Below, piece after piece: positions 1 to 16,613 of a stretch of 64,000 nt of DNA. The DNA is from a bacterium. Its GTDB lineage: Bacteria; Patescibacteriota; Patescibacteriia; Patescibacteriales; UBA12465. Each line of letters begins with the position of its first letter. Positions within the stretch are counted from its first letter, which is position 1. The stretch covers positions 8,276 to 72,275 of the forward strand of contig DAONDZ010000005.1 in assembly GCA_035402825.1 (NCBI GenBank). Direction: 5' to 3'. The position numbers and the translations under genes were made by a program. The notes below the pieces were generated by a model. That model was not told the DNA's origin and searched no databases. It saw nothing but the letters and a program-made list of their open reading frames with translations.

Positions 1-471
1 GTCTTTGGTTACTACAAAAATACTCTCGCCTTCAATATTTCCGAGATACTCTAAAATCGAAAAATAAATATAAGCGTCCTTGAAACCTTTATCAGACGTT
101 TCGTCGAATGGCGGAAGATTGCCAAGCGCAAGTTTTTTAATGTCCTCTAAAACATTTGTTGTTAAAGCAATGGTGGAATAAGGCAAGCTCTCAATTCCAG
201 CAAGTTCCAAAATCCACTTTTCTATATCAAAGTTTTTAGTTTCGTCTTCATCAATTTTTCTTAAAAAATGAAACGGATTCGATAGGAACGAATCTCTTTT
301 AGAAATAAGGTGTTTCCTTTTTTGGTTTTTTATTTCTTCGATAACAATGTCTGGAATAATAATTTCTGACACTTTCAAAAAACGCTCCAATTCAGAACGA
401 CCGCCTAAAAAATCAGCAACTGATTCGGCGTTTCTTATTGAATTTGTATCAAAAACTACTTTGTATTTCAT
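1..471 (-). CDS. PIN-like domain protein (DUF4935-like), partial; start ATG at 469-471 and the ORF runs off the window edge. It begins 4 nt downstream of the hsdS stop, consistent with co-transcription
   Basis: Manual translation of the minus strand: MKYKVVFDTNSIRNAESVADFLGG... with an N-terminal hhhFDTN motif typical of PIN-fold nucleases. No stop codon before position 1. Confidence 0.45.
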   Translation of the reverse strand, partial: MKYKVVFDTNSIRNAESVADFLGGRSELERFLKVSEIIIPDIVIEEIKNQKRKHLISKRDSFLSNPFHFLRKIDEDETKNFDIEKWILELAGIESLPYSTIALTTNVLEDIKKLALGNLPPFDETSDKGFKDAYIYFSILEYLGNIEGESIFVVTKD

Positions 472-474
472 AAT

Positions 475-1689
475 TTAATCATTAAATCCCACAACCCGAA
501 CCTCACCTTTCATCAATTTAGGCAAAAGCATACTGCGAAGAGTAGAAATAGTTTGTATTTGAGAATTGTTATTTTTTAGTTTTTTGAATGTCGGCTGAAT
601 AACTGCATTAAACTTTTTTATTATTTCATCTTCTGGCACTAATATATCAAGTGCCTTTATCATGGTTGAGTTTATAGCGGTGACAATTGATGAAGTGCTA
701 CCCAAACTATTAAAATCCAGATCTTTCAAGAATAAATAAATAAACTCAGTAGAAAAATTTGAGTTCTTTTTTATCTTTAAATGCGCAATCGCTTCATTCG
801 AAAGCATCTCCTCTGTTGTAATTGCTAATTTTCCCACTGTCATTTTAAAACTCAAAATAGCAGTGTTTTCTGGAATAACTGGAATATTAAATTTTTCAAT
901 TGCTTCGTCCGTTAAGTATTCGGAAGTGTTTGAAATATACATTTCACTATTTCCAATATCTTTTATAGAAATCCACTTTTTACCAATCGGCTTATTCGAA
1001 AACCATTCAGTTTCCAGTCTTGGCGGGGTGCGACCAATTGTAATATCAAATTCTTCTCCAATTTTCCCAGTCCTCCACCTCTCTGGGATTTTACCGAGTT
1101 CAGAATCAATTAATTTTCCATTAGCACCAGGAAAATTAAAGTTCACAAACCATTCCTTAAATATTGTCTGAGCAGTGGTCTCCAGGGTCTTATTTTGCTT
1201 CCGTAAAAACTCAATTTTATCATCTAAAGACGACAATACCGCAGCAATCGCGCGTTGTTCTGGTAAAGTGGGAGTAAGGATTAGTTTAGTTGATAACGCC
1301 CCTATTGTAATTTGAGGTTGAGCTGAACCTGTTATAACATCAGAAAAATCTCTTCCCAGCGCCCAATAATAAACAAAACCAGCGTCTAAATAGTCTTCGT
1401 TTACCTCAAAAGCAATGGAAGAATTTGTAATTGATGATTTCGCATCTGTTCTTTGAATAAAACCGCATCCAGAACCACGACAAGTAATAATTGGCTGTCT
1501 TTTTTCATATTCAAAAAAGTCTGTATACCCCCTTAATCCGCCGCCGCCGAAAACTGGGAATATTCTCTTAGTGTCTTTTGTTATAGATAAAATATCATCG
1601 GGAATGTATCTACCTTGTCGTAAAATAACAATTTCTCCTAGTGTCGTCATCTTCCATCCTTTTGGAATTGTAGAGGTTTGATCTATCAT
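475..1689 (-). CDS. hsdS: Type I restriction-modification specificity subunit HsdS (two target-recognition domains)
   Basis: 404-aa ORF with HsdS-like architecture: two variable TRDs separated by conserved coiled-coil-type repeats. Lies 2 nt downstream of hsdM. Confidence 0.8.
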   Translation of the reverse strand: MIDQTSTIPKGWKMTTLGEIVILRQGRYIPDDILSITKDTKRIFPVFGGGGLRGYTDFFEYEKRQPIITCRGSGCGFIQRTDAKSSITNSSIAFEVNEDYLDAGFVYYWALGRDFSDVITGSAQPQITIGALSTKLILTPTLPEQRAIAAVLSSLDDKIEFLRKQNKTLETTAQTIFKEWFVNFNFPGANGKLIDSELGKIPERWRTGKIGEEFDITIGRTPPRLETEWFSNKPIGKKWISIKDIGNSEMYISNTSEYLTDEAIEKFNIPVIPENTAILSFKMTVGKLAITTEEMLSNEAIAHLKIKKNSNFSTEFIYLFLKDLDFNSLGSTSSIVTAINSTMIKALDILVPEDEIIKKFNAVIQPTFKKLKNNNSQIQTISTLRSMLLPKLMKGEVRVVGFND

Positions 1690-1691
1690 AA

Positions 1692-3236
1692 TTATTCCAA
1701 GTTAAATCCAATATTTTTCAATTGTTTTTTTATTTCTTCATTTAATTTCTTTTCCTCCGCTATCTGCTCTGCAAGTTTAGCAGTTAGCCCTGTAATTTTA
1801 TCAAAAAAAGGAATGCCATCATCAATTTCATCTTGATTGCCAACATAGCGCCCCGGGGTAAGAACAAAGTTATGTTTAGTTATTTCATCTATACCAGCGG
1901 ATTTACAAAAACCTTTTATGTCTTCATATTTTCCATTTTGCTTGCGCCATTCGTGGTAGGTGCCAGCAACACGTGCCATGTCATCTTCGGAAAATTCGCG
2001 GTGCGTCTTGTCTGACATATGGCCGACTTCACTTGCGTCTATAAAAAGAATTTCACCGGTGCGTTTACGGTCACCGTTGCCTGTGCGTTTGCGAGAAATA
2101 AACCAAATACATGCTGGAATTCCAGTATTATAAAAAAGTTGTTTCGGAAGCGCGACAATACAATCCACTAAATCGTTTTCAACGAGCGACTTTCTAATAT
2201 CTCCTTCGTTGTTGGTTTGACTTGATAGTGAACCGTTGGCTAACACACACGCCATAACACCGTGTGGTGATAAATGGTAAATCATGTGCTGGAGCCACGC
2301 ATAATTGGCATTAGATGCGGGTGGTATACCATATTGCCAGCGAGGATCGTTTTGTAAAAGTTGTCCGGACCAATCACTGTCATTAAATGGTGGATTAGCA
2401 AGAACAAAATCAGCCTTAAGATCTTTGTGGGTATCATTTAAAAATGAGCCTTCGGTATTCCATTTTACCTGAGAGCCATCAATACCACGAATAGCAAGAT
2501 TCATTCGGCACAAGCGATAAGTCGTTTGGTTGCTTTCTTGACCATAAATAGAAATGTCCTCAACATTTCCGCGGTGTTCTTTGATAAATTTTTCACTCAT
2601 GATAAACATTCCGCCACTACCACACGCCGGGTCATATACTCTGCCTTTGTACGGCTCAATCATCTCTACCATGATGCGAACAATTGATTTTGGCGTGTAG
2701 AACTGGCCACCCTTCTTACCCTCTGCATTAGCAAATTCACCGAGGAAATATTCATATACCCTCCCAAGTAAATCCTTACTTTTTGCAGCCTCGGTACCAA
2801 GGGCGATATTACCCACAAGATCAATAAGTCCACCAAGTGAGGCTTTGTCCAAATTAGGACGAGCATATACTTTCGGGAGAATACCTTTAAGCGTCGGGTT
2901 TTCTTTTTCTATGGCCTCCATCGCATCATCCAAGTCCTTCCCAATGGATGGTAGTTTTGATCGAGAATGAAGATAAGACCAACGGGCAATTTGTGGCACG
3001 AAAAAAACATTTTCTGCGCGATACTCGTCGGCATCTTCAGGGTTTGCCCCTGCAAAATCATCGCCACCTACTTTTATTTTGTTATATAACTCCTCAAATG
3101 AATCTGAAATGTATTTCAGAAAGATAAGCCCAAGCACAATGTGCTTGTACTCAGCTGCATCCATATTCTTACGTAATTTATCAGCCGCCTTAAAAAGAGT
3201 CTTTTCAAATGATTCTGTTTTATTATCCTTTGCCAT
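1692..3236 (-). CDS. hsdM: Type I restriction-modification N6-adenine DNA methyltransferase subunit HsdM
   Basis: 514 aa, carrying the N6-MTase catalytic motif NPPF (LANPPFNDSDW) and the SAM-binding motif DPACGSGG. Confidence 0.9.
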   Translation of the reverse strand: MAKDNKTESFEKTLFKAADKLRKNMDAAEYKHIVLGLIFLKYISDSFEELYNKIKVGGDDFAGANPEDADEYRAENVFFVPQIARWSYLHSRSKLPSIGKDLDDAMEAIEKENPTLKGILPKVYARPNLDKASLGGLIDLVGNIALGTEAAKSKDLLGRVYEYFLGEFANAEGKKGGQFYTPKSIVRIMVEMIEPYKGRVYDPACGSGGMFIMSEKFIKEHRGNVEDISIYGQESNQTTYRLCRMNLAIRGIDGSQVKWNTEGSFLNDTHKDLKADFVLANPPFNDSDWSGQLLQNDPRWQYGIPPASNANYAWLQHMIYHLSPHGVMACVLANGSLSSQTNNEGDIRKSLVENDLVDCIVALPKQLFYNTGIPACIWFISRKRTGNGDRKRTGEILFIDASEVGHMSDKTHREFSEDDMARVAGTYHEWRKQNGKYEDIKGFCKSAGIDEITKHNFVLTPGRYVGNQDEIDDGIPFFDKITGLTAKLAEQIAEEKKLNEEIKKQLKNIGFNLE

Positions 3237-3237
3237 A

Positions 3238-3411
3238 TTATTTTTTAAGTAATTTTAATATTTCACTTTTTCTAAAACGTCGATCGCCTCGTTTACCAAA
3301 GCGAATACATTCAACCAGGCCATCCTTCTCCCATTGTCTAAGGGTGTTTGGGTGACAATTTAATAGTTCACAAGCCTGACTTAACTTTAATATTTCTTCA
3401 TTATTTTCCAT
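3238..3411 (-). CDS. Small helix-turn-helix DNA-binding protein (MerR/excisionase-family HTH), 57 aa, immediately upstream of hsdM
   Basis: Manually found ORF below the 60-aa cut-off of the track: MENNEEILKLSQACELLNCHPNTLRQWEKDGLVECIRFGKRGDRRFRKSEILKLLKK. The HTH_17-like pattern is (L..A.ELL......T...W...G.....R.G.R.RF). Confidence 0.55.
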   Translation of the reverse strand: MENNEEILKLSQACELLNCHPNTLRQWEKDGLVECIRFGKRGDRRFRKSEILKLLKK

Positions 3412-3476
3412 ATATATCTTGATTTTCTACTTAATATAACTTAACATTAGTATATATTATTACTATTGAAATTACA

Positions 3477-4244
3477 ATGATAAAAAATGACACAAAAAAT
3501 AAAGTTTCAGCAGCTCTGTTAAACGAATCATACTCTAGAATCATTGATATTTTTGAGGCAATTAAAAGTGGACTTATTTTATACACCGACGAAAACCTAA
3601 ATCAATGTTATATATCATTAGTCAAATCTATTAACAAAATTCTAGAAGAATCCTGTTATTCCGAGCTTAAAACGTTCGTGCCAGATTTTTATAAAGACAT
3701 AACAAGTAAAATAAACTTTATTGACCGAGAGTGGGATCAATATAAGGAAGAGCTTTATAATTTTTCTAGCAAAATTAATTCTTACTGTTTAACAATAGGA
3801 GCCAAAAAAGAAGTACTTAGTATTGATTTATGGAGTCCATTGTTTAATCAAATAGATGAAGCAATCACTAATCATCGCGAAACGGTAAAATATTTTTCTG
3901 AAAAACTATTAGAAAAACAAAATAACAATACCGAGAAAATAAAAATTAATATTTCCGATAATCGAGGGATATGGCGCAAAGATAATAAGACAATTCGTAT
4001 TTATGAAATAGGGATAAATACTAAAAGATTCATGATTATCAAATGTCTGAAAAACAAACAAAAAAGTGGACCTGCTTTAGCAAAATCCTACGCAAACAAT
4101 AGCCTCTCCCAGCTTAGCAAGGAGATTAAAAAAATTAACAGCCTGTTTAAAGAAAAACTTTTATTAAATGAAAATTTAATCGAAAAAGCTAACACGGGCG
4201 GATATGAATTAAATATTACTTTTTTTGATATAAATTTTGAATAA
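3477..4244 (+). CDS. Hypothetical protein (AT-rich island gene)
   Basis: 255-aa ORF followed by an intrinsic terminator; no recognisable motif. Confidence 0.45.
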   Translation: MIKNDTKNKVSAALLNESYSRIIDIFEAIKSGLILYTDENLNQCYISLVKSINKILEESCYSELKTFVPDFYKDITSKINFIDREWDQYKEELYNFSSKINSYCLTIGAKKEVLSIDLWSPLFNQIDEAITNHRETVKYFSEKLLEKQNNNTEKIKINISDNRGIWRKDNKTIRIYEIGINTKRFMIIKCLKNKQKSGPALAKSYANNSLSQLSKEIKKINSLFKEKLLLNENLIEKANTGGYELNITFFDINFE

Positions 4245-4283
4245 AAACAAAAAACCTTTAGTTGGTGTTAATAACTTTCTGGA

Positions 4284-4312
4284 AATGGCTTAATAGGCCA
4301 TTTTTTTGTTTA
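4284..4312 (+). terminator. Rho-independent terminator
   Basis: AAUGGC-UUAAUAG-GCCAUU hairpin followed by UUUUUUUGUUU. Confidence 0.6.
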
Positions 4313-4417
4313 TTAAGGTCAATAAAAAACCAATGATAAAAAATTCTAAAATACGGCAAAGTATAATTAAAGCTTTTTAATCCGGTGCACTGGTAATTTA
4401 ATAATAAAATTAAAATT

Positions 4418-4684
4418 ATGATTACCGACAAAAACAAACTGGAATACATCGACTATCGCGATGAATTTTCTACTTACGATATAGGTTTAGCTGCGGCCTT
4501 GGTTTCTTTTGGATACGAGCTTTGGGCTTTAGAAAAAGGAGAACCAAAGACAAAATTTATTTTTAAGCGTGAAACAGGTATCGAGAATACAGTTAATAGC
4601 TATTTTAACGGCAATCTGCAGGTTGATGCCCGAACAATTTTTGATAACCTAAAAATGCTCAAAAATCGCCTTTACAGTTTATGA
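4418..4684 (+). CDS. Hypothetical small protein, DUF5659-like (phage/plasmid-associated family)
   Basis: 88-aa ORF. The pattern ...ALVSFGYELWALEK...KFIFKRE...DARTIFDNLKMLKNRLY resembles DUF5659 members; the assignment is from memory, not a search. Confidence 0.4.
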   Translation: MITDKNKLEYIDYRDEFSTYDIGLAAALVSFGYELWALEKGEPKTKFIFKRETGIENTVNSYFNGNLQVDARTIFDNLKMLKNRLYSL

Positions 4685-4818
4685 AGCTTACCGGAAAAGA
4701 GATCGAGCGCTTTCAAAAAATCTATCAGGATATTTTTAACGAGAAAATAAGCTCTGATGATGCGCTTGGAAAAGGCATAGCCATAATAAACTTATTAAGA
4801 ATCGCTCTAAAAAATTAA
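4681..4818 (+). CDS. Hypothetical micro-protein (45 aa), translationally coupled to the preceding gene (ATGA overlap)
   Basis: Manually translated: MKLTGKEIERFQKIYQDIFNEKISSDDALGKGIAIINLLRIALKN. The start overlaps the stop of the 4418..4684 ORF. Confidence 0.3.
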   Translation: MKLTGKEIERFQKIYQDIFNEKISSDDALGKGIAIINLLRIALKN

Positions 4819-4824
4819 AATTAT

Positions 4825-5991
4825 ATGAACAAAGAATTCGAATATTTGGGAGCCGAGGAACTAACGGATATTCTAGGACTTACCATAAAAAAAGATAATA
4901 AAAATAAGCTTATTACTTTTCTTTGTGCCTTATCTGCTTATACAGAAGATTCCCAATTTAATTTAATCTTTAATGCTCCATCTTCAACTGGAAAAAGTTT
5001 TATTCCAACAGAAATAGCCAAACTTTTCCCAGCAGAAGATGTTATAGAAATCGCTTACTGCTCCCCAACCGCTTTTTTTCATGAGAACGGAAAATATGAC
5101 AAAGAACGAAACTCAATAATAATGGAACTATCTAATAAAATAATTATTTTTTTAGACCAGCCTCACTTGATGCTTCTTGAAAAACTTAGGCCGCTACTTT
5201 CTCATGATGCCAAAGAAATTAACCTTAAGATTACTGATAAGTCACAAAAGGGTGGTTTAAAAACCAAAAACATCATAATAAAGGGGTATCCTAGTGTTAT
5301 ATTTTGTAGCGCCAACATGAATATAGACGAACAGGAAGGCACTAGATTTATGGTGCTTTCACCAGAAGTGGATCAAGACAAGTTACGAGAATCCATAAGA
5401 GAGAAAGTACTTAAAGATACTGACATTGAAAAATATGCTACCTGGCTCGAACAAGACCCAAGAAGAATAAAATTAAGAGAACGAATACTGGCGATCAAGG
5501 CAGCAAAAATAAAAAATATTATTGTGCCCAACCCAGAAATAATATTAGAAAAATTTTTTGCAAGCAGAATTAAACTAAAACCACGTCACCAAAGAGATGT
5601 TGGGCGCATAATTTCATTAATAAAAGTTTCCGCTCTTATAAACCTGTGGCTCAGGGAAAAAGTTGGACCATCTATTATTTCTAATAATGATGATTTGGAC
5701 TTAGCCTTTTTGATCTGGAACAAAATATCAAAAAGCCAAGAATTAAATATCTCTCCTTACATTTTAGATATATACGAAAAAATAATTCTGCCCCTTTCGT
5801 CTGATAATCATGGATTAACAAAAAAAGAAATATTGGCAGAATACTACAAACGAAATGGGAGTTTTATTCCGGATTATCAATTAAGACAACAAATAATACC
5901 GACCCTAAAGGTGGCCGGATTAATTTCAGAGGACCCAGACCCTAAAGATGGTCGCTCAATTTTAATTAGACCCACAATGTATAGTGAGTGA
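4825..5991 (+). CDS. P-loop NTPase, SF3-helicase / primase C-terminal-like replication protein of a mobile element
   Basis: Walker A NAPSSTGKS, Walker B-like IIIFLDQ and a sensor-1-like VIFCSAN, spaced as in P4-type primase-helicase / D5-like ATPases. Confidence 0.5.
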   Translation: MNKEFEYLGAEELTDILGLTIKKDNKNKLITFLCALSAYTEDSQFNLIFNAPSSTGKSFIPTEIAKLFPAEDVIEIAYCSPTAFFHENGKYDKERNSIIMELSNKIIIFLDQPHLMLLEKLRPLLSHDAKEINLKITDKSQKGGLKTKNIIIKGYPSVIFCSANMNIDEQEGTRFMVLSPEVDQDKLRESIREKVLKDTDIEKYATWLEQDPRRIKLRERILAIKAAKIKNIIVPNPEIILEKFFASRIKLKPRHQRDVGRIISLIKVSALINLWLREKVGPSIISNNDDLDLAFLIWNKISKSQELNISPYILDIYEKIILPLSSDNHGLTKKEILAEYYKRNGSFIPDYQLRQQIIPTLKVAGLISEDPDPKDGRSILIRPTMYSE

Positions 5992-6027
5992 TACCGTGGG
6001 GTAAATTTATAAATTAATTTAAATTAT

Positions 6028-6270
6028 ATGAAAAACAGTGAAAAAATCATTATAACTATGTTATTTGATGAAGAAATAATTCAATGTTGTGCCGAGTCTA
6101 CAATTAAAAGAAGATTAAGTAACCTGGAATTAAACCGCCTAAGTCTTTGCTGGCCAAATTTTGATTGCACCGGTGGCGCAAGAAACGAAATCATGGAACA
6201 GTTTATTAAAGAAGTTATTGATCATGAAGACATTTGGGCGGACAAGGAATATTTTAAGTTAAAAAAATAA
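6028..6270 (+). CDS. Hypothetical small protein
   Basis: 80-aa ORF with a Cys-containing N-terminal half. Confidence 0.3.
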   Translation: MKNSEKIIITMLFDEEIIQCCAESTIKRRLSNLELNRLSLCWPNFDCTGGARNEIMEQFIKEVIDHEDIWADKEYFKLKK

Positions 6271-6600
6271 CGACAAAGGTGCGACAAATAAATTTAATAG
6301 AAGAAATCAAAACTTAAAAAATCGTGTTATCAGCGAGTAACCAATACAAAAAGAGTTAACAATATAATTTTCTTATTAAATATTAAACTAAATATAGCAA
6401 AACTTAGTACCCTTTTTTCGAGAATATAACCGGACAAAACCGGACAATAAAACGAGACAATGAGAACATTTTAAGAGTTTAGAAAATAGTAAAAAATACC
6501 CACGTTCTTTAAAAGTTTTAAAAACTACAACAATATAACGACAAAATTAAGCCTAAATCAAAGCTTTTTATTAGATCATGGGGCGGCCCTAAAATTGACA
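6241..6600. repeat. Cluster of at least 8 GACAA-core short repeats in an AT-rich, ORF-free region (iteron-like; putative origin or recombinase-binding region)
   Basis: GACAAGG, CGACAAAGG, GCGACAAATA, CCGGACAAAA/CCGGACAATA (tandem 10-mers at 6430-6449), CGAGACAATG, AACGACAAAATT and TTGACAAATT. Confidence 0.35.
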
Positions 6601-6625
6601 AATTAGCTTGATAACTAGTGCTTTC

Positions 6626-6634
6626 TGTGATAAT
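6626..6634 (+). promoter_or_regulatory. Extended -10 promoter (TGtGATAAT) driving the structured RNA element
   Basis: TG at 6626-6627 and GATAAT at 6629-6634. An upstream TTGATA/TTGACA lies at suboptimal spacing. Confidence 0.4.
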
Positions 6635-6640
6635 CTATAA

Positions 6641-6801
6641 GCGACTACCCAATTAAATGTTCACGAAACTAAGGCCCGTTTGACGGTTAGCCCGTCTTTG
6701 TCTCGCACTTGCGGATAAAGATGGGCAGTTAACCTTCCACAAGCGAGACCTTTGGGCCTTCGTGAACAGTGGGTAGTCAGGTTTGACTGCCCTTTTTTGT
6801 T
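6641..6801 (+). ncRNA. Unclassified highly structured RNA / riboswitch-like leader
   Basis: Nested long-range helices:
- GACUACCCA(6643-6651)/UGGGUAGUC(6770-6778)
- GUUCACGAA/UUCGUGAAC
- AAGGCCC/GGGCCUU
These enclose two hairpins (GACGG-UUAGC-CCGUC; GUCUCGC...GCGAGAC). An alternative terminator GGGUAGUC-AGGUUU-GACUGCCC plus U6GUU reuses the 3' strand of the outer helix. Confidence 0.5.
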
Positions 6802-6828
6802 GGGCAGATTATAATTAAAATAAAAATT

Positions 6829-7344
6829 ATGAGCAATGAAAACAAGCTCCTGGACGGAGCTAAAAAATCGTCCATCATGAATTGGGTTAAGAAACACAAG
6901 ATCTTAACCGCCATTATAATTATCTTCGTAATCGGACTGATCGGTAGTGCCATGGGGGAAGATAAAAGCACTAATAACAATATCGTCGCAAATCCTGAAG
7001 CTAATAAACCAGAAGAAAAGCAACCGGTCCAGGAGCCAGAAAAACCCAAGACTTGGACTAGCGTTTACAAAGTAACAGCAAACTCAGACAAACAAACTGA
7101 AAACTTTTCCCTTGATGGCGGACAACAGAAAATAGTATATAAGACTACCGGCAACAGCTCACTCTGCTATGTCTACGTTCTAAAGGAAGGAGCAACGCTA
7201 GACAAGAACGGCGGAATGCCAGTTGTATCAATCGACGGCGAACAAGCCGACGAAACGATGATGAGAAAATCCGATGGAAACTATTACTTGGATATCAAAA
7301 CAGTAAATGGTAGTTGCCAAATAGAAGTTCAGGAACTTAAATAA
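6829..7344 (+). CDS. Small membrane-anchored (N-terminal TM/signal-anchor) extracytoplasmic protein, hypothetical
   Basis: 171 aa with a hydrophobic segment ILTAIIIIFVIGLIGSAMG, then a low-complexity linker and a Cys-containing domain. Confidence 0.5.
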   Translation: MSNENKLLDGAKKSSIMNWVKKHKILTAIIIIFVIGLIGSAMGEDKSTNNNIVANPEANKPEEKQPVQEPEKPKTWTSVYKVTANSDKQTENFSLDGGQQKIVYKTTGNSSLCYVYVLKEGATLDKNGGMPVVSIDGEQADETMMRKSDGNYYLDIKTVNGSCQIEVQELK

Positions 7345-7360
7345 AAATGAATAACCATAA

Positions 7361-7387
7361 AAGACCGCTCCAAGGCGGTCTTTTTAA
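7361..7387 (+). terminator. Rho-independent terminator
   Basis: GACCGC-UCCAAG-GCGGUC followed by UUUUU. Confidence 0.6.
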
Positions 7388-7396
7388 AAACATAAT

Positions 7397-9040
7397 ATGA
7401 CAAATCAAAACAATAATATTAAATACTTTCTTTACGCAAGAAAGTCGTCCGAAAGTGAAGATAAGCAAGTGGCTTCTATTGATGCTCAAATTGATGAGCT
7501 CAAAAAAATATCTAAAGAAAATAATTTAGAGGTAGTTGAAATCCTATCAGAATCACAATCAGCCAAGAAGCCGGGACGCCCCGTCTTTAACTCAATGTTA
7601 GAAAGAATTTATAAAGGCGAAGCAACTGGTGTTTTATGCTGGAAAATTAATCGTTTAGCAAGAAACCCAATCGACGGCGGGAAAGTATCCTGGATGCTTC
7701 AGGAAGGCACTATTAAACACATACAAACCTTTGGTCGAAGTTATTACCCTAGTGATAATGTTTTAATGATGGCCGTTGAATTAGGAATGGCCAATCAATT
7801 TATTAAGGACCTAAGTGTCGACACAAAAAGAGGTTTAAGGGCTAAGGCTGAGCGTGGCTGGTATCCGACATTCACATCTTTAGGCTACAAACACAATCCA
7901 TTAAAGATAAAAGGAGAAAAAGAAATAGTTGATGATCCGGAAAAGTTTCATTTACTGAGAAAAATGTTTGACCTAATGCTAACTGGCCATTATCCAGTAA
8001 AAAAGATTCTTGATATTGCAACTAACGAATGGGGCTTGAGAAATAAAAAAAATAAAAAGGTTGCTATAAGCACCTTTTACAGAATTCTATCAGACCCCTT
8101 CTATTATGGTAACTTTGAATATCCTCAAGGCAGCGGAAATTGGTATAAAGGAAAACATAAACCAATGATTACTATAAATGAATTTGAGCGCATTCAAAAA
8201 CTATTAGGCAAAGAAACAAGTGCGCGTCCTCATAACAAAGAATTTGCTTTTACAGGATTAATGCGGTGTGGCGAATGCGGAGCTATTATAACTGCCGAAG
8301 CTAAAGTTAAAAGTTATAAGAATGGAAATATTCATAATTATACTTACTACCACTGCACAAAAAGAAAAAATCCGAATTGTTCTCAGAAATGCATTCGAGT
8401 AGAAACCTTAGAGAAACAAATAAGCGAAGAAATAAAACAAATATTTTTACCTAAAGAATTCTGTAGTTGGGCGCTAGAAGTTTTAAGCCGTGAAACCCGC
8501 GAAAACGGTCAAGATCGAGCCCAGCTCATATCTAAGCATAAAAAGGAATACGACGCTGTAGTGACCAAAATAAACGGTATAATAGACATGAGATCAGCTG
8601 GAGAGCTAACTGCCGAAGAATTTAATGAGCGTAAAATAGAGCTGAGCCGAGAAAAAGAGAAATTACAAGAACTTTTAAAGGATGTAGAAGAAAATGAAAA
8701 CAACTACACCGAAAAGGCGAACAGCCTTTTCCTTTTCGCAGAAAAGATTTGTGAAAAATTTATAAATGGAGATTTAAAGGACAAAGGAATAATACTTTCC
8801 TGCTTAGGTTCGAACCTCACATTAATCAACGGAAAATTGGAGATTTCATTGCAAAAACCACTAATACACATCAAAAATTTATCGCAAAATTTACACGCGA
8901 AAAATGAAGCGTTAGAACCAATGAAAAATGGCGAATATAAAAGAAAAACAGGCTCTTTCGAGTCTGCTTTTCCGATGTTGCTCCCGGGGTGGGATTCGAA
9001 CCCACGACCAATTGATTACACTTATCCACTAGTTTCCTAA
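7397..9040 (+). CDS. Large serine recombinase (integrase/transposase-type); C-terminal about 20 codons overlap tRNA exon 2 and the intron
   Basis: Resolvase-domain catalytic motif YARKSS near the N-terminus, a recombinase domain, a Cys-rich zinc ribbon (CGECG...C..C) and a coiled-coil C-terminus. The ORF reads through 8981-9040. Confidence 0.85.
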   Translation: MTNQNNNIKYFLYARKSSESEDKQVASIDAQIDELKKISKENNLEVVEILSESQSAKKPGRPVFNSMLERIYKGEATGVLCWKINRLARNPIDGGKVSWMLQEGTIKHIQTFGRSYYPSDNVLMMAVELGMANQFIKDLSVDTKRGLRAKAERGWYPTFTSLGYKHNPLKIKGEKEIVDDPEKFHLLRKMFDLMLTGHYPVKKILDIATNEWGLRNKKNKKVAISTFYRILSDPFYYGNFEYPQGSGNWYKGKHKPMITINEFERIQKLLGKETSARPHNKEFAFTGLMRCGECGAIITAEAKVKSYKNGNIHNYTYYHCTKRKNPNCSQKCIRVETLEKQISEEIKQIFLPKEFCSWALEVLSRETRENGQDRAQLISKHKKEYDAVVTKINGIIDMRSAGELTAEEFNERKIELSREKEKLQELLKDVEENENNYTEKANSLFLFAEKICEKFINGDLKDKGIILSCLGSNLTLINGKLEISLQKPLIHIKNLSQNLHAKNEALEPMKNGEYKRKTGSFESAFPMLLPGWDSNPRPIDYTYPLVS

Positions 9041-9575
9041 TGGGGTGGACTATATCATCGCCCATACAACATGGGCGCGAGGCGCTTCGAGCTATAACTT
9101 ATAGCCCTACTCCCTTTCGGGATAGTCTCTGAACCTTCCACACATAATCCTATGCGGGCTTGGCTGCTGATTACCATAATCTTTCGATCTTAGGCTTCCA
9201 GCAATTCACCTCGTTCTTCGATCTCAATTACTTGAGAAAGCTGCGTAATGCCTTCATGTACTTCGCGATGACAATTGGCACATAGGAGAACACATTTCTT
9301 TAGTTCTTCTGCTACGGACTTCCAGCTTCTGGTGTATCCTTTAGCAGAAATACCGAAATCTTTCTCCCCCGATTCAAGATGGTGAAACTCTAAAGCTTTT
9401 AGGCATCTATTGTAACCACAAATGATGCACTTTCCGCCTTTGTGTTCAACCGCCATCTGACGAATCTTTTTGCGTCTTTTGTCAACGGCCGCCTTCATAT
9501 ATTCGGCTCTATCGGCATATTTTCTCTTTTCTTTTCGCATATAAAATAGTTATAGCAAAATAAGAGAGTGCGTTC
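9019..9575 (-). mobile_element. Group I self-splicing intron (about 557 nt) with an embedded HNH homing-endonuclease ORF
   Basis: On the minus-strand RNA:
- Q-like AAUCAGCAGCC (about 9156-9166)
- R-like UUCAGAGACUAUC (9121-9133)
- S-like GAUAUAGUCC (about 9046-9056)
- P7 pairing GACUAU/AUAGUC
- terminal G before exon 2, and U before the 5' splice site. Confidence 0.8.
9190..9540 (-). CDS. HNH-family homing endonuclease encoded inside the group I intron
   Basis: 116 aa with a zinc-finger-like CIICGYNRC...HH and a HNH-like CANCHREVH motif. Confidence 0.65.
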   Translation of the reverse strand: MRKEKRKYADRAEYMKAAVDKRRKKIRQMAVEHKGGKCIICGYNRCLKALEFHHLESGEKDFGISAKGYTRSWKSVAEELKKCVLLCANCHREVHEGITQLSQVIEIEERGELLEA

Positions 9576-9636
9576 ACAGTCAACTGCGCTACCGCTGCGC
9601 TACCCGGGAATATATTAAATTTTCAAAACATAAGCT

Positions 9637-9665
9637 ATAATATCGCAAAAAACCGCGGCTGTCAA
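9637..9665 (-). promoter_or_regulatory. Sigma70-like promoter for the intron-containing tRNA (TTGACA-17-TATTAT on the minus strand)
   Basis: Reverse complement of 9660-9665 is TTGACA and of 9637-9642 is TATTAT, with a 17-nt spacer. The tRNA 5' end lies about 28 nt downstream. Confidence 0.45.
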
Positions 9666-10940
9666 TTAGTAATCCCGCAGTTTCTCCAAGCCCTTCAGCT
9701 TTCTAATCTTCTCCAAAGCCTTGGCCTCAATCTGCCTAATTCTTTCTCTGGTCACCTCAAACTCCTGCCCCACCTCTTCCAAGGTATGAGCCACGCCGTC
9801 CACTAAACCAAAGCGCATTTCCAGAATCTTCTGTTCGCGCGGAGAAAGGTTAATAATAATTTCTTTGACGTAGTCTTTCAAAAGCTGCAAAGCGGCCGAT
9901 CTATCCGGAGTTTCATTCTTCACATCCTCAATGAAGTCTTCTAAGGTGGAATTATCTTCATCGTCGCCAATAGTGGTTTCTAGGGATATGGTATCTTGGG
10001 AAATCTTGATGATGTATCGCACCTTCTCTAGCTCTTCTCCCATTTCCGCGGCCACTTCTTCCGGCAACGGTTCGCGGCCTAATTCCTGAATCAAGAATCT
10101 CTGGACCTGCTGGAATTTGTTAATAGTCTCCACCATATGAACCGGGATGCGAATAGTGCGGGATTGATCGGCTAAAGCACGAGTAATGGCCTGGCGAATC
10201 CACCAGGTGGCATAGGTGGAGAATTTAAAACCCTTGCGGTGTTCAAACTTCTCCACGGCTCTAAATAGTCCGATATTGCCCTCTTGAATCAAATCTAATA
10301 GTCCCAATCCTTTGGCGCTGGCAAACTTCTTGGCAATGGATACCACCAAGCGCAAGTTGGCTTCAATAATCTTTCTCTCGGCTTCCTTGTCTCCCTTTTC
10401 TTTCCGTTTCGCCAATTCCACTTCTTCTTCGGAATTCAAAAGCGGAATCTTGCCGATTTCTTTTAAATACATCTGAATGGAATCAGCGCTTAGTTTGGTT
10501 AAATCCAAACCGAAAGTCGGAGTCTTAGTTTTGGAGGGCATATCAGTATTCTGTCCCAAAACGTTGCCGGAGTCTTCAATTATTCTGACACCCGCTTCCT
10601 GCAGCTTGCCCAAGAAAATATCATATTCAAAAACATATTCTTCCAATTCCGGAAATAAGTATAATAATTCGGTCTCAGTGACAAAACCCCGAGTCCGTCC
10701 TTTGTTGATGACATTCTGCATTTTCTCTTCGGTCGGTTTAATCACTTCCCGCGGTTCAATTTTAAAAACTTTTTTAACCTTCACGGCCTTCTCTTTTTTC
10801 GCTTCAATCTTTTTCTTTGGAACAACCTTAACCACAGCCTTAGCTTTGGCCTTTGTTTTAATCATGGGTTTTTTGGCCACAGCCTTTTTAGCCGGTTTCT
10901 TCTTGACCGTTATTTTTTTAGTATTTTTTTTAACTTTCAT
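9666..10940 (-). CDS. rpoD: RNA polymerase primary sigma factor (sigma-70 family) with an unusual about 70-aa lysine-rich N-terminal tail
   Basis: Regions 2-4 are recognisable (…[10 protein letters not shown]…, …[14 protein letters not shown]… and C-terminal [23 protein letters not shown]). The N-terminus is KK-rich instead of acidic region 1.1. Confidence 0.85.
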
Positions 10941-10942
10941 AT

Positions 10943-12736
10943 TTAGAGATTTAATTCTTTCATTTTAGCGGACAGCTCCTTCATCTCCTCCATCAACTTG
11001 ACGGTATCCAGATCATCCTGGGCTTCCTCCGAACGGCTCAAAAGAGCCTCTATTTGCCCCATCCTTTTCTTATAGCAATCATGCTTTAGTCCGACCACTA
11101 GTTTAATGATTTCTGACTTAATAGTCAAGGCATCGGATTCGGCAAAATCTTTGTCGGACAACAGGGACAAAGTGTCTAATAATGCTAACTGTTCTTCGCC
11201 TTGAGAGGCTAAAGCCTCTTTTAGGCCGGGATAGTCTAATCCCTGCTTAGTATTATAATAGATTATTAAAGCATTGTAAAACGCGCGTAAGGAGTCATTG
11301 GGTAAATGTTCCGGCAAAAGATTATTCACCGCGTAATCTAAAAATTGCGGCTCTTTAAGAATCAAAGATAAAAGTAGTTCCGCCATTTTTTCATCGCGGT
11401 TTTTTTCCAAAACCACTTCATATTCCGCGCTCACCACCGGCTTGTCCTCCTTAATATTTTTCCTTATATTAGCCAATTCTTCCCGAATCATTGTCTCTTC
11501 AGAATTAGTCTTGGCCGCCAATCTCTTCAACCAATGATCGGCTTCAATATTATTTTTCACCTTAGAAATCATGGTGAGCATCTTGGGAATGATTAATCGC
11601 TTCTGACTGACATCGCTCAAATCCACCCCGGCGGTAATCTTGTCAAAATAATATTCCAAAACCGGCTTAGCGGCTTCCACCGCTTGGCGCCACTCTTCCG
11701 GATTATGCCGCAGACATTCATCCGGGTCTTTGCCTTGAGGAATGATGATAATCTTCACATTCATTTCTTGAGCTAGAGCCTCCACAATTCCCCTGTCAGC
11801 AGCAATTTGCCCGGCGGCATCGGCATCAAAGGCTAGGGCTAGGTTGTTGGTATAGCGCTTCAAAAGCTTCACCTGCCCAAAGGTCAAAGCGGTGCCCGAT
11901 GAGGCCACGGTATTCTTGAAACCGCGGGATTGCGAAGTGATAGCATCCATTTGCCCTTCCACCACTATGGCTAAGTCCTGATCTTTGATTTCCCGTCGCG
12001 CTTTGTCCAGCCCGAAAAGCACCCGACTTTTGTCATAGACAGCGGTTTGCGGAGTGTTAATATATTTGCCCATCTTTTCCATTTCCGGATTGACAGTTTG
12101 CGGATTAACGCGCGCGGTGAAACCTACGGTCAAACCGGCAGCGTCATTAATCGGGAACATGATTCTATCCCGAAAACGGTTAAAGTATCTTCCCGCCCCT
12201 TCTTTCTTCTGAGACAAGCCGGAAAGAAAGATGTCTTCATCGCTATACCCTTTTTTCTTGAGATGATTAATTAAATCGTCAAAACTATTAGGACTATACC
12301 CCACCTGCCATTCCTTAACCGATTTCTCATCCAATCCCCTTCCCTTGAGATAGTTTTTGATATTGTTGTTGCCTAACATCTGGCGTTGATAGAACTCCTT
12401 GGCGGCGGATAAAACATCAATTAGCTTGTTGCGCTTAGAGCTGTCTTCCCAATCATTTTTTTGTAGTGTCACCCCGGCCTTGTGAGCTAATTGTTTGAGC
12501 GCCTCCACAAAATTCAGCCCCTCCATTTCCATGACAAAGCCGAAGATGTCGCCGCCTTTTTGGCAACCGAAACAATGCCAAATTTGTTTCTCCGGCGAAA
12601 CCATGAAAGACGGCGTCTTCTCATGATGGAACGGACACAAAGCCCGCAAGTTAGAACCAGCGGGCCGGAGGTTGATATATTCTCCCAGGACTTCGGTAAT
12701 ATCCAATTTTGATTTTATCTCTTCTAAGGGGTTCAT
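10943..12736 (-). CDS. dnaG: DNA primase DnaG
   Basis: N-terminal zinc-binding [11 protein letters not shown]...CFGC, a TOPRIM region (EG..D) and the dnaG-rpoD arrangement. Confidence 0.85.
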
Positions 12737-13041
12737 AGGGTGAATAATAATAAAGACTTGAGGCGCTCCACCTCTTGCGACACTACTTCACTGTCATATT
12801 CCGCATTGTGCATATGAGAGCCTTCATAGCTAGCCTGTTTCTGATCCAGGTGAAGACTAAAGACCCAATTGTCGCCGCCCTCTTCCACGTATAAATGGAT
12901 TCGGGGATAGAAATTCTGTCCCAGACGGCGGACAAAACTTTGCACGCCGCGACGGCGGTCAAAAATCAAACCATAGCCGGCATGGCGCAACCAAGATTCC
13001 GGGTTTTCGCTTAATGAATTTTTCGGGATGGTAATTTTCAT
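12733..13041 (-). CDS. Hypothetical protein (translationally coupled between the GtrA-like gene and dnaG)
   Basis: 102-aa ORF with 4-nt overlaps on both sides. Confidence 0.4.
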   Translation of the reverse strand: MKITIPKNSLSENPESWLRHAGYGLIFDRRRGVQSFVRRLGQNFYPRIHLYVEEGGDNWVFSLHLDQKQASYEGSHMHNAEYDSEVVSQEVERLKSLLLFTL

Positions 13042-13526
13042 AAACCAGGATTAACTTCCGCCTTATCTTTTTTTCTAAAAACGATAAATTTGTAAGCCAC
13101 AAAGCTTTCCAAGCCAATCAAGATACTCACTATTAACTGGGACCAAAGATAATGGACTTGCCAGCGATTAACAAAGATATGCATTAAGTAGCCGTTTAGG
13201 TTCAAGTTGATAAAAGCAATCACTATATAAATACAAATTTGACTCCAAACCCGATGCTGGTCTTGGTTATTAAAAGTCCAGAACTTCTGTAAATAAAAGC
13301 TGACCCAGAAAGACAGGATATAGGCAATGGAGGTGGAAACGATGACATTGATGTTAAGCAAGCCATGGCAGATGTACAGGACACCCAAATCTACTCCGCC
13401 AGCGATACCGCCGCTCATCACGAATTTCACTAAAGATTTATGCCGGTGCAGAATACTATAAATCCGAGGATAACGATGATACCCCCAAGCCTTAATCCGG
13501 CAGAAAAAGTGTAAAAATATCTTCAT
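13038..13526 (-). CDS. GtrA-family membrane protein (the true start is possibly the internal Met at about 13421)
   Basis: MSGGIAGGVDLGVLY... is a GtrA-like N-terminal motif with 3-4 TM helices; the N-terminal 35 aa are probably over-extension. Confidence 0.5.
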   Translation of the reverse strand: MKIFLHFFCRIKAWGYHRYPRIYSILHRHKSLVKFVMSGGIAGGVDLGVLYICHGLLNINVIVSTSIAYILSFWVSFYLQKFWTFNNQDQHRVWSQICIYIVIAFINLNLNGYLMHIFVNRWQVHYLWSQLIVSILIGLESFVAYKFIVFRKKDKAEVNPGL

Positions 13527-13535
13527 AATAATAAA

Positions 13536-14414
13536 TTACCATTTAAAATAGCGATAGGCAAATCGGGCCAACTTGGCCGTCTCGCTGAACCTATCCGCTT
13601 CGCTTTCCGCCCCTAAAACCACAGAAATAGTGGTATGCCCTGCACTATCGCTGAACTTAGCGGCCAGGCAATAGCCAGCGACATCGGTATGGCCGGTCTT
13701 GCCGCCGATAATCTGCATGCCGGTTTCCGAAAAGCTGTTTAACAAATAATTAGTGGAAGAAAACTTCTTTTTCTCGCCGCTGACGGTACTGAACTCTATC
13801 TCCGGACTAGCTACCGCTCGGGCGATTTCTAAATTATCTAAAGCCGCCTTAGTCAATTTGGCTACCTCCAAGGCATTGGACATATTCTTTTCTAAACCAA
13901 TAGGGTCAATGAAATTGGTTTGGCTTAATCCCAAATCCAAAGCTTTGCGGTTCATGGCTTTAACAAAATCCGCTCGGCTCAATCCGGTAGCTGAAGTTAA
14001 AGCCGCCGCGGCGGTATTGTCCGAGCCCACCAGCATCGCCGAGAATAAATCCCTGACTTTCACCTTTTCTCCTAAATACAATTTGCCGCCAGTCTCCAAA
14101 TCGGTGCTTTTGATTTCATAGACACTGTCCCAACCCGGATTATGTTCCAAAAATACTAAAGCCGTCATCAGCTTAGTGATGCTGGCGATGGCGTGCTGTT
14201 CATTAGCTCTTTGAGAAAAGATAGCGCTCTGACTTCTGATATCCCACACCACGGCCGCATCAGCATTGATAATCATCAGCGGCGCCTCAGCCGATAATTG
14301 CGGTTTCTGGTTATTAGCCTCTTTCTCAACAATTGCTTCTAAAGACGGCGGCGTGGAGGCAAAATTAATCCCAGATAAAAAGAGCATGACAATTTTCACG
14401 ATATATATGAACAT
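13536..14414 (-). CDS. D-alanyl-D-alanine carboxypeptidase (PBP5/6-like, S11 peptidase)
   Basis: Signal peptide, then SxxK (ASITKLM), SGN-like (VGSDN) and KTG (GGKTGHT) motifs. Confidence 0.75.
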   Translation of the reverse strand: MFIYIVKIVMLFLSGINFASTPPSLEAIVEKEANNQKPQLSAEAPLMIINADAAVVWDIRSQSAIFSQRANEQHAIASITKLMTALVFLEHNPGWDSVYEIKSTDLETGGKLYLGEKVKVRDLFSAMLVGSDNTAAAALTSATGLSRADFVKAMNRKALDLGLSQTNFIDPIGLEKNMSNALEVAKLTKAALDNLEIARAVASPEIEFSTVSGEKKKFSSTNYLLNSFSETGMQIIGGKTGHTDVAGYCLAAKFSDSAGHTTISVVLGAESEADRFSETAKLARFAYRYFKW

Positions 14415-14417
14415 AGG

Positions 14418-15020
14418 TTAGATAGTTTCGGCAGCCGCCCTTTCAATTAATTGATCAATACTCTCATCTTGATGCAGTTTTTCGTAGTCCGGCAATTCTT
14501 CTACTCGATTAACCCCTAAATGGCGAATGAAGTCCAAGGAAACCTGATAATAGTTCTCCCCTTTCTCCTTGTCGGCTTCTTCCTCAATTAAGCCACGCAA
14601 TAATAGATTGCGTAAAATCAAAGCGCAATTGACGCCTCTAATCCGATCCAAGTCTATCTTGGCAATCGGACCGCGATAAGCAATGATAGTCAGAGTCTCC
14701 AAGCTAGGGCGAGACAATTCCCCGCTCATTTCAGCCTGTAAAAACTCGCGCACTACGCCAGCTGTTTCCGCCGAGGTCACCAATTGATATTTGTGGCCGC
14801 TTTTGATTAATTGCAAACCGCCAGATCGAGATTGATAATCTAAAATCATCTGTTCTAAAACAGTTTCAATTTCAGCCTCTTTAGCTTTTAATAAGTCGGC
14901 CAATTCTTTGACGGCCAAAGGTTTGTTAGCCACGAACAGGACGGCTTCCAGGGCGGCTGGGTAGTTTTTCATATTATAATTTATTAATAATAATCTCGCG
15001 GAATAAATCTTCTTGCTCAA
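14418..15020 (-). CDS. scpB: Segregation and condensation protein B (ScpB)
   Basis: ScpB-like winged-helix repeats (LEAVLFVANKPLAVKELADLL); overlaps the scpA end. Confidence 0.7.
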   Translation of the reverse strand: MSKKIYSARLLLINYNMKNYPAALEAVLFVANKPLAVKELADLLKAKEAEIETVLEQMILDYQSRSGGLQLIKSGHKYQLVTSAETAGVVREFLQAEMSGELSRPSLETLTIIAYRGPIAKIDLDRIRGVNCALILRNLLLRGLIEEEADKEKGENYYQVSLDFIRHLGVNRVEELPDYEKLHQDESIDQLIERAAAETI

Positions 15021-15693
15021 ATCTCAATTCCCGCTGTTTGGCTAATTCCAAGACTGCTAAAAAATTCACGATGATTTCCGTTTTAGATTGAGCGGCGGCG
15101 ATAATGTGGGAAAAATTGAAACGAATCTTTTCCAAGAGAGCCTGCTGGATATAAGCGATGCGCTCTTCAATACTAATCTTGTATTCCATCTTCTCTTCTT
15201 TCAGCTCTTCCTCCTCATTAGCAATCATGCCCAAGAGATATTGAAATTGCTCGCGGAGCTTCTCCTTGGTTAATCCTTTAGGCGGCGAAAAACTAGCTTC
15301 TAAAAACACCTTGCGCCGCTTGCCGCTTTTGCCATAGTCGCGCATGAACAGGAATTGTTTCTTGGCTAAGCGTTTCTCTATCACCCCGGCCGCCTCCAAA
15401 AACTCCTTGTACATCTTTAACTGCCTGGTTAAGTCCTCCACATCCTCATCCTCTTCCGGAGTGGCTAGATATGGCAACAAGGCTTTAGATTTGATATAGA
15501 GCAATTTGGCGGCCACCACCAAAAAATCAGCCACTTGCTCCGGATTGATGCTCTGGGCTGATTTAATATAGGCCACATACTCGTCGGCTATTTTAGCTAA
15601 AGATATTTCGGTAATATCAAGCTCCTCCTTCTCGATTAAAGAAAGCAGCAAATCCAGCGGACCGTTAAATTTTTCCGTTTGAAACTCCATCAT
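14974..15693 (-). CDS. scpA: Segregation and condensation protein A (ScpA)
   Basis: N-terminal FNGPLDLLLSLIEKEELDITEISLAKI typical of ScpA. Confidence 0.8.
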   Translation of the reverse strand: MMEFQTEKFNGPLDLLLSLIEKEELDITEISLAKIADEYVAYIKSAQSINPEQVADFLVVAAKLLYIKSKALLPYLATPEEDEDVEDLTRQLKMYKEFLEAAGVIEKRLAKKQFLFMRDYGKSGKRRKVFLEASFSPPKGLTKEKLREQFQYLLGMIANEEEELKEEKMEYKISIEERIAYIQQALLEKIRFNFSHIIAAAQSKTEIIVNFLAVLELAKQRELRFEQEDLFREIIINKL

Positions 15694-15695
15694 AA

Positions 15696-16613
15696 TTATT
15701 TCACTCCCGGTTTCACGTCAGCCCAGAGGTTGCCCTGAAAACAATAGTTTCCGGCGCTATGATAGCCCGATCCGGACATCGGATAGCTGGATTGATCGCC
15801 GTTGTTATTTCGGTTGTCAGTTCTAAATTGAGCGCAAAGCTCAAACTCCTTCTCGCCTTTTTTCTTATATTTAATCTCCGTTTTAGTTTCCGGATCGATT
15901 AATTGGCCCGGACTAATATTGAAGAACTTATCTGCCTGGAGTTCTGCCAAGTCATTAGGCAACCGCTTATTACGCTCGTAATAAGTATTGATGTAGCTTT
16001 CTAGATTATAGACATTATTAGTTAAAATCTGATCCAAGCGCTTATCCCGAGCCACCCGCGGCGAATCAACTAAGAAGAAGGCGCTGATGAAAGCAGCTAC
16101 CACGATAGCCAGGGAGGCGCAGAAATAAATTCGCACCACCAGCTTCAAAGCGCCGGCATCCTTGCGGCGAATTTCTTGAAAATAGAAAGAGAAAACTATC
16201 GCTCCCAAAATCAAGACAGAGATAATCTTCAAAGCGGAACGCCAAGTGGCTTCTCCGGATAGGAAATTATTCACTAGCGCGATCAAAGCGCCAATAGCCA
16301 CCAAGGAAGAAACTAAGAGAATAAAATAGGTCAACCAACGGCGCACTGGAGAATCCAGGCTTAATTCCTTCTTCTTGATTCCCCGTCTAATCAAACTAGA
16401 GATAACATAAAACAACGGCGCGGCAATCAGCAGAGCGGAAATAGCAAAACGCAAAGCCTCGCTAGACACAATGGATGAAGAAGCATTCAAAGCGTCCACC
16501 AGATACTTGTTAATCAACTGAAAAGAAACAATGCCCACGGAGACAGCCATGAAGATCAAAGCTAACAGCGAGAGCAAGTAATAAAAAGCATACTTGGCGT
16601 TGTGTTGATTCAT
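15696..16613 (-). CDS. Polytopic membrane protein, hypothetical
   Basis: Several hydrophobic helices followed by a soluble C-terminal domain with Cys residues. Confidence 0.45.
   Translation of the reverse strand: MNQHNAKYAFYYLLSLLALIFMAVSVGIVSFQLINKYLVDALNASSSIVSSEALRFAISALLIAAPLFYVISSLIRRGIKKKELSLDSPVRRWLTYFILLVSSLVAIGALIALVNNFLSGEATWRSALKIISVLILGAIVFSFYFQEIRRKDAGALKLVVRIYFCASLAIVVAAFISAFFLVDSPRVARDKRLDQILTNNVYNLESYINTYYERNKRLPNDLAELQADKFFNISPGQLIDPETKTEIKYKKKGEKEFELCAQFRTDNRNNNGDQSSYPMSGSGYHSAGNYCFQGNLWADVKPGVK

Follow-up and report, generated by a model that had tools for sequence, protein, structure and literature searches.

The window analyzed here is a stretch of 64,000 nucleotides (nt) from a bacterium of the Patescibacteriota (positions 8,276 to 72,275 of contig DAONDZ010000005.1, assembly GCA_035402825.1), and all coordinates below are window coordinates. 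It contains a transfer RNA gene in two pieces on the minus strand. We argue that it is very probably a tRNA-Asn(GUU) gene in which a mobile and self-splicing group I intron, of subgroup IA, separates U35 from U36. An HNH gene lies in the loop of the intron's first helix. The arrangement is far beyond chance. The phenomenon has been published before: Nakagawa et al. (mSystems 2026, PMC13011429; preprint 10.1101/2025.07.03.662931) described this kind of intron together with splicing experiments on a homologous intron. Judged by junction, exons, core and HNH homology, the window intron belongs to their Patescibacteria tRNA-Asn 35/36 class.

The preliminary description of this DNA had reported two tRNA halves on the minus strand, and they are present exactly where it put them. 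The 5' exon holds the 5' strand of the acceptor, U8-A9, the D arm, the 5' strand of the anticodon stem and C32 U33 G34 U35. The 3' exon continues with U36 A37 A38, the 3' strand of the anticodon stem, the variable loop, the T arm, the 3' strand of the acceptor and the discriminator base G73. It does not encode CCA and is present as a single copy within the window. When the exons are joined they form a flawless cloverleaf, which ARAGORN reports as tRNA-Asn(gtt) of 73 bases. When the halves stay unjoined, ARAGORN with default settings reports zero tRNAs in the 64-kb window. The description had also pointed to a U before the 5' splice site and a G as the final intron nucleotide, and both are seen for 9575..9019. 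The 5' exon terminates in CUGU in 9/9 family members. The same split arrangement occurs in 9 distinct loci of other organisms, and the gene order dnaG-rpoD-tRNA is retained at two loci, L007 and L009 (loci are cited by our own numbers).

The RNA between the exons has the fold of a group I ribozyme. Rfam family RF00028 matches 9311..9026 on the minus strand over the full length of the model with 84.1 bits against a gathering score of 50 (E = 6e-20). It is the sole Rfam family matched in the window. The group I assignment had first been made from Q-like, R-like and S-like strings. In the Rfam alignment these strings are the P4'/P6, P6'/P7 and P7' strands, and the assignment is borne out by the match above the gathering score and by the covarying core helices.

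Relatives were gathered through the HNH protein. Four loci came from reference genomes and 6 from metagenome assemblies; two further loci are the window's own sequence in other assemblies. All of the gathered relatives have the same layout as the window. RNAalifold on 9 distinct sequences recovered P2, P3, P4, P5, P6/P6a, P7.1, P7.2, P8 and P9, and 38 of the 59 pairs predicted in P2-P9 are kept through double-sided changes across these 9 family members. P7 is a pseudoknot and so lies outside the covariation scoring; its strands, GACUA and UAGUC, are invariant. P7.1 and P7.2 lie between the 5' strand of P7 and P3'. This is the hallmark of subgroup IA, and on this basis the intron is placed there. 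A further RNAalifold pairing, between ACGC in the guide region and GUGU at the 3' splice site, is probably an artefact, the 5' exon being absent from the alignment.

The open reading frame (ORF) of 116 amino acids with the motif CANCHREVH is present inside the intron, as described earlier. It has an HNH motif (His...Asn...His) flanked by two CxxC pairs. In 25 aligned sequences C38, C41, H53, H54, C87, C90, H91 and H95 are invariant, and N89 is nearly so. The family is large, with >2000 clusters at E <= 1e-3, and its closest named members are labelled Parcubacteria or Patescibacteria. The preliminary description had suggested comparing the ORF with profiles of HNH families. In such a comparison 24/25 aligned members match PF01844 (E <= 0.01, best 4e-6) and several homologs have a precomputed PF01844 assignment, but the window protein by itself falls below the cutoff.

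The gene and the ribozyme share sequence. The last ~18 codons and the stop of the ORF cross the guide sequence, P2, P3, P4 and the 5' strand of P5. The conserved protein end 'GITQL' is encoded by the guide sequence, and the remaining tail is translated from P2-P5. This implies that the conservation of the tail reflects constraints on the RNA. Variants of 102 amino acids end directly after the guide sequence. The protein would be an active homing enzyme that cuts intron-less tRNA-Asn genes. We infer this role because the ORF lies inside the intron and because its presence among homologous introns is patchy.

An extended -10-like box stands just 5' of the HNH start in the window (TGCTATAAC, within the region 9509..9575), in L004 (TGGTATAAT) and in L006 (GCTATACT). 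The window box was not called by a scan for two-hexamer promoters. It could be an internal promoter for expression of the endonuclease independently of the tRNA.

The mechanism we propose is as follows. A strong promoter of its own would drive transcription of the tRNA-Asn gene. In the precursor the guide GCAGC (9244..9240) would pair with the exon end CUGU to form P1, and the U•G wobble would mark the 5' splice site. An external guanosine would attack this site. The terminal G (9019) would then enter the G-binding site in P7, and the exons would be ligated into a 72-nt tRNA with the loop CUGUUAA. The HNH endonuclease encoded in the P1 loop would cut intron-less tRNA-Asn genes near the insertion site, and repair would copy the intron in (homing). 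That the window copy splices is predicted from a homolog lacking a homing endonuclease gene (HEG), which self-splices accurately in vitro at 35/36 in a reaction started by guanosine and shares 69% core identity with the window (PMC13011429).

Several observations weigh against our interpretation. Most relatives have a stronger P1 than the window, where A31-U39 in the anticodon stem, in place of G31-C39, produces an A·C mismatch at exon position -5. P10 (AUUA at 9249..9246 with UAAU of the 3' exon) has only 4 base pairs and is weak. It is found only in the window and L004, and we do not rely on it because it is not conserved in the family. The window HNH protein alone scores 17.9 bits where the PF01844 cutoff is 21.4. 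A profile search of the PDB gave no close solved structure, the best match being the HNH motif of McrA at E = 0.015. Finally, the data cover the 64-kb window, and an intron-less second tRNA-Asn gene may lie elsewhere in the genome.

It is worth considering what these points would mean if taken at face value. The intron could be a decayed relic that does not splice, this copy of tRNA-Asn a pseudogene, and another gene the source of tRNA-Asn. The mismatch does leave P1 with four perfect pairs only. The splicing of the window copy does rest on a homolog, and the sequence covers the window rather than the whole genome. However, all core helices are intact and their conserved strands agree with the family consensus. 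The HNH ORF is unbroken and keeps every motif residue. The gene has a near-consensus promoter. The A31/U39 exon variant behind the mismatch is also present in L004 and in the published GCA_016699245.1. We consider a relic highly unlikely.

The choice of splice junction needs more argument. If the boundaries are moved by 2 nt the host gene becomes tRNA-Thr(UGU), with the intron at 33/34 and the loop CUUGUAA. The joined halves fold equally well at either junction. In the window copy a U also precedes the 5' site and a G closes the intron at both junctions, and ARAGORN run with -i (intron mode) outputs Thr(UGU) at 33/34. The preliminary description had named both readings and preferred Asn(GUU). 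That preference is upheld by the wobble in the guide pairing, by the terminal G in L003 and L012 and by a sequenced ligated homolog (PMC13011429).

The guide GCAGC lies directly 5' of the P2 hairpin and P3, which is the canonical place. GCAGCUU is invariant in 9/9 aligned family members, and P1 is conserved without covariation. With the intron between U35 and U36 the wobble falls between U35 and G9244 and the terminal guanosine (omega-G) is the G at 9019, as the splice-site rules of group I introns have it. In the Thr junction U33 stands opposite the A of the conserved GCAG, which removes the U•G wobble, and none of the other guide candidates is suitably placed. A second candidate, GCGGUUGA at 9453, makes 8 pairs with the exon. 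We rejected it: 4/8 of the pairs are G•U, and it is situated mid-ORF, not before P2/P3. The introns of L003 and L012 terminate in CUUG. There the 35/36 junction retains the terminal G, whereas the shifted junction gives a U as the last intron base.

The identity of the tRNA points the same way. Bacterial tRNA-Asn is marked by U1-A72 and G73, and bacterial tRNA-Thr typically has G1-C72 with A or U at 73. U1-A72 and G73 are found in every family member and in 15/15 Patescibacteria tRNA-Asn genes of PMC13011429 Table S3. The window exons are 72-85% identical to published tRNA-Asn exons, and those at 85% come from Paceibacteria and Saccharimonadia genomes. Nakagawa et al. document that software mis-calls such genes systematically: Thr(UGU) at 33/34 is a frequent output of ARAGORN and tFind (PMC13011429, Table 1), and the ligated product of a homologous intron was sequenced as Asn. 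The ARAGORN call in the window is ruled out by the guide-sequence and terminal-G arguments. Three independent lines (guide sequence, terminal G and tRNA identity) thus support Asn(GUU) and an intron that separates U35 from U36, and the chance that the gene is tRNA-Thr is slighter still than that of a relic. Under the CUGU/UAA reading a read across the spliced junction would contain ...GACUGUUAAUC..., and a read with ...GACUUGUAAUC... would contradict it.

One can also imagine that the two halves are attachment-site fragments left by site-specific integration of the adjacent island, as a large serine recombinase gene (7397..9040, plus strand) abuts and overlaps the 3' half with low-GC DNA beyond it, but the intervening 557 nt are a complete group I ribozyme with an endonuclease gene and not island cargo, the identical split is found at L007 and L009 with no recombinase nearby, and no additional tRNA fragment is present in the window, so this explanation deserves almost no weight.

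Table 1. Positions of the split tRNA-Asn gene, the elements of its intron and the neighboring genes in the 64,000-nt window
Feature	Position	Strand	Remarks
tRNA-Asn 5' exon, 34 nt	9576..9609	-	TCCCGGG-TA-GCGC-AGCGGTA-GCGC-A-GTTGA-CTGT
Group I intron, subgroup IA, 557 nt, between anticodon positions 35 and 36	9019..9575	-	begins with G, ends with G, preceded by U
L1 (P1 loop), 331 nt, holds most of the HNH gene	9245..9575	-	by comparison with PMC13011429 Table S3
Putative HNH homing endonuclease ORF, 116 aa, with CANCHREVH	9190..9540	-	starts 36 nt into the intron
Internal guide sequence GCAGC	9240..9244	-	pairs with exon end (A)CUGU as P1; G9244 opposite U35 is the U•G wobble
P2 hairpin UCUCAA-GUAA-UUGAGA	9222..9237	-	alignment columns 16-21 with 26-32; 5/6 pairs with at least one compensatory double change
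Core domain P3-P4-P5-P6-P7(5')-P7.1-P7.2-P3'	9078..9213	-	Rfam alignment and covariation
P3	9213..9207 with 9084..9078	-	
P4	9203..9198 with 9170..9165	-	
P7.1, UCCC-GAAA-GGGA	9122..9111	-	covaries
P7.2	9107..9089	-	covaries
P8	9077..9059	-	several compensatory changes
P7 3' strand UAGUC	9052..9048	-	invariant
P9, GAAA loop	9043..9026	-	several compensatory changes
tRNA-Asn 3' exon, 38 nt	8981..9018	-	TAA-TCAAT-TGGTC-GTGGG-TTCGAAT-CCCAC-CCCGGGA-G
Putative sigma-70-type promoter, TTGACA / 17-nt spacer / TATTAT	9637..9665	-	11/12 consensus matches
asnS	16629..18014	-	672 bits to asnS model
aspS, non-discriminating type	18024..19322	-	456 bits
Large serine recombinase, 547 aa	7397..9040	+	
Type I restriction-modification (R-M) subunit M	1692..3236	-	
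Type I R-M subunit S	475..1689	-	

The putative promoter overlaps the stop codon of rpoD, and its -10 hexamer ends 27 nt upstream of the 5' end of the tRNA. A scan for intrinsic terminators made no call downstream of the tRNA. Visual inspection shows an imperfect hairpin at ~8964..8937, CAGACUC-GAAA-GAGCCUG with UUUUUCUUUU behind it, that was not among the scan's calls.

The intron-bearing tRNA had been described as lying next to asnS and aspS. This does not hold, since 7-10 kb separate the two genes from the tRNA, a stretch that holds rpoD, dnaG and five other ORFs. The proximity is loose and shows no sign of meaning. The presence of asnS within the window does imply that the organism needs tRNA-Asn. 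The presence of asnS together with a non-discriminating aspS suggests two routes to Asn-tRNA-Asn, or that one is a relic.

On the other side of the gene the composition changes. The GC content of 1..9000 is 30-38% except in one 1-kb bin (2001..3000) at 43%, and that of 9001..20000 is 42-46%. The region 1..9040 also holds several ORFs without a family match. Given the low GC, the serine recombinase, the type I R-M genes and these ORFs, it is probably an acquired genomic island that ends at the tRNA-Asn gene. The last 20 codons of the recombinase including its stop (8981..9040, plus strand) are antisense to the tRNA 3' exon and 22 nt of the intron, from P9 to the terminal G. This overlap could be a chance extension through stop-free tRNA antisense sequence, or it could reflect an attachment site in the tRNA. 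A repeat of the tRNA 3' end or of the intron end that could mark an island boundary was sought in the window, and none was found. At L011 (2021..2789; Magasanikbacteria, GCA_030650025.1, a metagenome-assembled genome or MAG) a large serine recombinase also converges on and overlaps an intron-bearing tRNA-Asn. It is 31% identical to the window recombinase over the zinc-ribbon region. These cases suggest that integration at tRNA-Asn recurs in these bacteria.

The split gene has a practical consequence for annotation. Default tRNA finders see no tRNA in the 64-kb window and intron-aware ARAGORN sees Thr(UGU), so tRNA-Asn would be counted as missing from the genome. The published remedy is to compare the junction with intron-less homologs (PMC13011429), and it applies to the window gene.

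Relatives of the HNH protein are also found outside bacterial genomes. Among IMG/VR viral contigs there are at least 561, of which the best 80 loci were kept (L013-L092, 47-69% identity), and 344 GenBank phage records contain members of the family. An nhmmer search with a profile of the intron core matched 1/80 of the viral loci against 12/12 controls, and Rfam found a group I intron in 1/20. This near-absence implies that the phage HNH copies do not reside in introns. They sit within dense tRNA arrays instead, with 131 tRNA matches in 62 kb. After removal of redundancy the viral loci form 50 clusters, and in 25 of these an intact tRNA-Asn(GTT) on the same strand immediately adjoins the HNH gene. 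Asn makes up 27/76 of the neighboring tRNAs as against 8/219 (3.7%) elsewhere in the same arrays (p ~ 2e-16). Bacillus phage Bastille has the order tRNA-Asn / HNH / tRNA-Asn, while in Salmonella phage Felix O1 and the crAss-like phage DAC15 the HNH gene is beside other tRNA isotypes (L093-L095 are Felix O1, Bastille and DAC15). On one viral contig, L026, the HNH gene and tRNAs are only a few hundred bases away from a tmRNA (1410..1686; cyano_tmRNA 112 bits, permuted-type 61 bits).

That phage tRNA arrays contain HNH genes is known in general (PMC6409571, PMC5966550). A limited literature search gave no report of a preference for tRNA-Asn or of kinship with the Patescibacteria intron enzyme. 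The phage genes resemble the window gene in being 47-69% identical homologs that are tied to tRNA genes, preferentially tRNA-Asn. They differ in lying outside introns and in lacking the guide-encoded 'xQL' tail. This tail is present in 105/120 of the best metagenome homologs and in 0/80 phage copies, which makes it a marker of intron-borne copies. Intron-borne HNH copies, as predicted from the sequences, are far more numerous in metagenomes than the four in complete genomes. T4 SegB (PMC2330249) is a comparable tRNA-linked phage endonuclease, but it belongs to a different nuclease family (GIY-YIG).

One viral contig appears to show an intermediate state. In L030 (517..1149; IMGVR_UViG_3300023184_006895) a free-standing HNH ORF (517..879) runs into the beginning of a tRNA-Asn (869..1149), and this tRNA-Asn carries a HEG-less group I intron of 206 nt at 35/36. 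The 3' region of that intron resembles IC3-type introns (PMC13011429 Table S5) and not the IA family of the window. We tentatively propose an HNH lineage specialized on tRNA-Asn genes that exists in three states: free-standing at intact tRNA-Asn genes in phage tRNA arrays, free-standing but overlapping an intron-bearing tRNA-Asn as in L030, and inside the P1 loop of the intron. The last state is represented by the window and at least 105 metagenome protein clusters. We hold this to be possible, at somewhat less than even chances. If true, it would be a natural series in which a mobile intron arises by the merging of two elements with a shared target site, a free-standing endonuclease of phages and an intron that was already there. 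Bonocora and Shub reportedly proposed that merging pathway.

The same scenario would also imply spread by phages, including to MAGs that are not labelled Patescibacteria. HNH-bearing introns at 35/36 of tRNA-Asn are found in L003 (a MAG labelled Eubacteriales), L005 (a MAG labelled Omnitrophota) and L012 (Ca. Euphemobacter frigidus, Auribacterota). The D arms of these three tRNAs are unlike the Patescibacteria type, which argues against simple mis-binning. The Omnitrophota locus also has an nhaA-I riboswitch (1163..1217) upstream of its intron-bearing tRNA-Asn. We regard the phage link as a lead and not a conclusion. It is nevertheless the part that could matter, as a tractable system for how mobile introns are assembled. 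The window locus adds one member to a characterized class and alone changes little.

That class is now well described. Nakagawa et al. analyzed 95 complete Patescibacteria genomes and found group I introns at 35/36 in 15 tRNA-Asn(GUU) and 3 tRNA-Asp genes (PMC13011429). They classified nearly all Patescibacteria tRNA introns as subgroup IA, and they assigned 25/28 introns at 35/36 to it. The preliminary description had framed bacterial tRNA group I introns as rare, and they are now known to be common in Patescibacteria. It had also singled out an endonuclease in a tRNA-Asn intron; HNH (PF01844) genes were already known from four tRNA-Asn introns at this site, in GCA_023898525.1 and GCA_016699425.1 (Paceibacteria), GCA_001029735.1 (UBA1384) and GCA_000503835.1 (WWE3). 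Among complete genomes, Nakagawa et al. found HEG-bearing IA introns at 35/36 only in Patescibacteria. The introns of GCA_016700035.1 (Asn) and GCA_001029755.1 (Asp) splice exactly at 35/36; this was shown in vitro, with a mutant of the terminal G, and by sequencing the product.

The window intron is closest to these systems. Its core (guide to terminal G, 226 nt) is 60-72% identical to six introns of PMC13011429 (Tables S3, S4), and its HNH protein is 51-62% identical to 4/4 published intron HNH proteins. It shares with the HNH-bearing Patescibacteria introns the tRNA-Asn host, the 35/36 site, the ribozyme family, the layout of guide followed by P2 and the position of the HNH gene in L1. Their length is ~570-610 nt, compared with 557 nt in the window. 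The window intron differs in its host organism, a metagenome MAG, and in the ORF tail, which reaches the 5' strand of P5, whereas the 102-residue variants stop after the guide. The spliced, HEG-less intron of GCA_016700035.1 (Saccharimonadia; Fig. 4, Table S4) is the homolog with the 69% identical core, measured over ~230 nt. It has the same CUGU|...G|UAA junctions, the same GCAGC guide and the same layout, ...GGCUGU|uaaagGCAGCC. Its L1 is 5 nt long, while that of the window is 331 nt and holds an endonuclease gene, and it encodes the CCA that the window gene lacks. Across the six published HEG-less relatives L1 is 5-28 nt.

The classical bacterial tRNA introns are more distant. They too are self-splicing, interrupt the anticodon loop after a U and in some cases carry a homing endonuclease. 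One such enzyme is I-Ssp6803I, the PD-(D/E)XK endonuclease of the cyanobacterial tRNA-fMet intron. The classical sites are 34/35 of tRNA-Leu(UAA) and 33/34 of tRNA-fMet in cyanobacteria, and 36/37 of tRNA-Arg(CCU) (PMC13011429). These introns are mostly of subgroup IC3, and they differ from the window intron in loop position, tRNA isotype and endonuclease family (PMC13011429).

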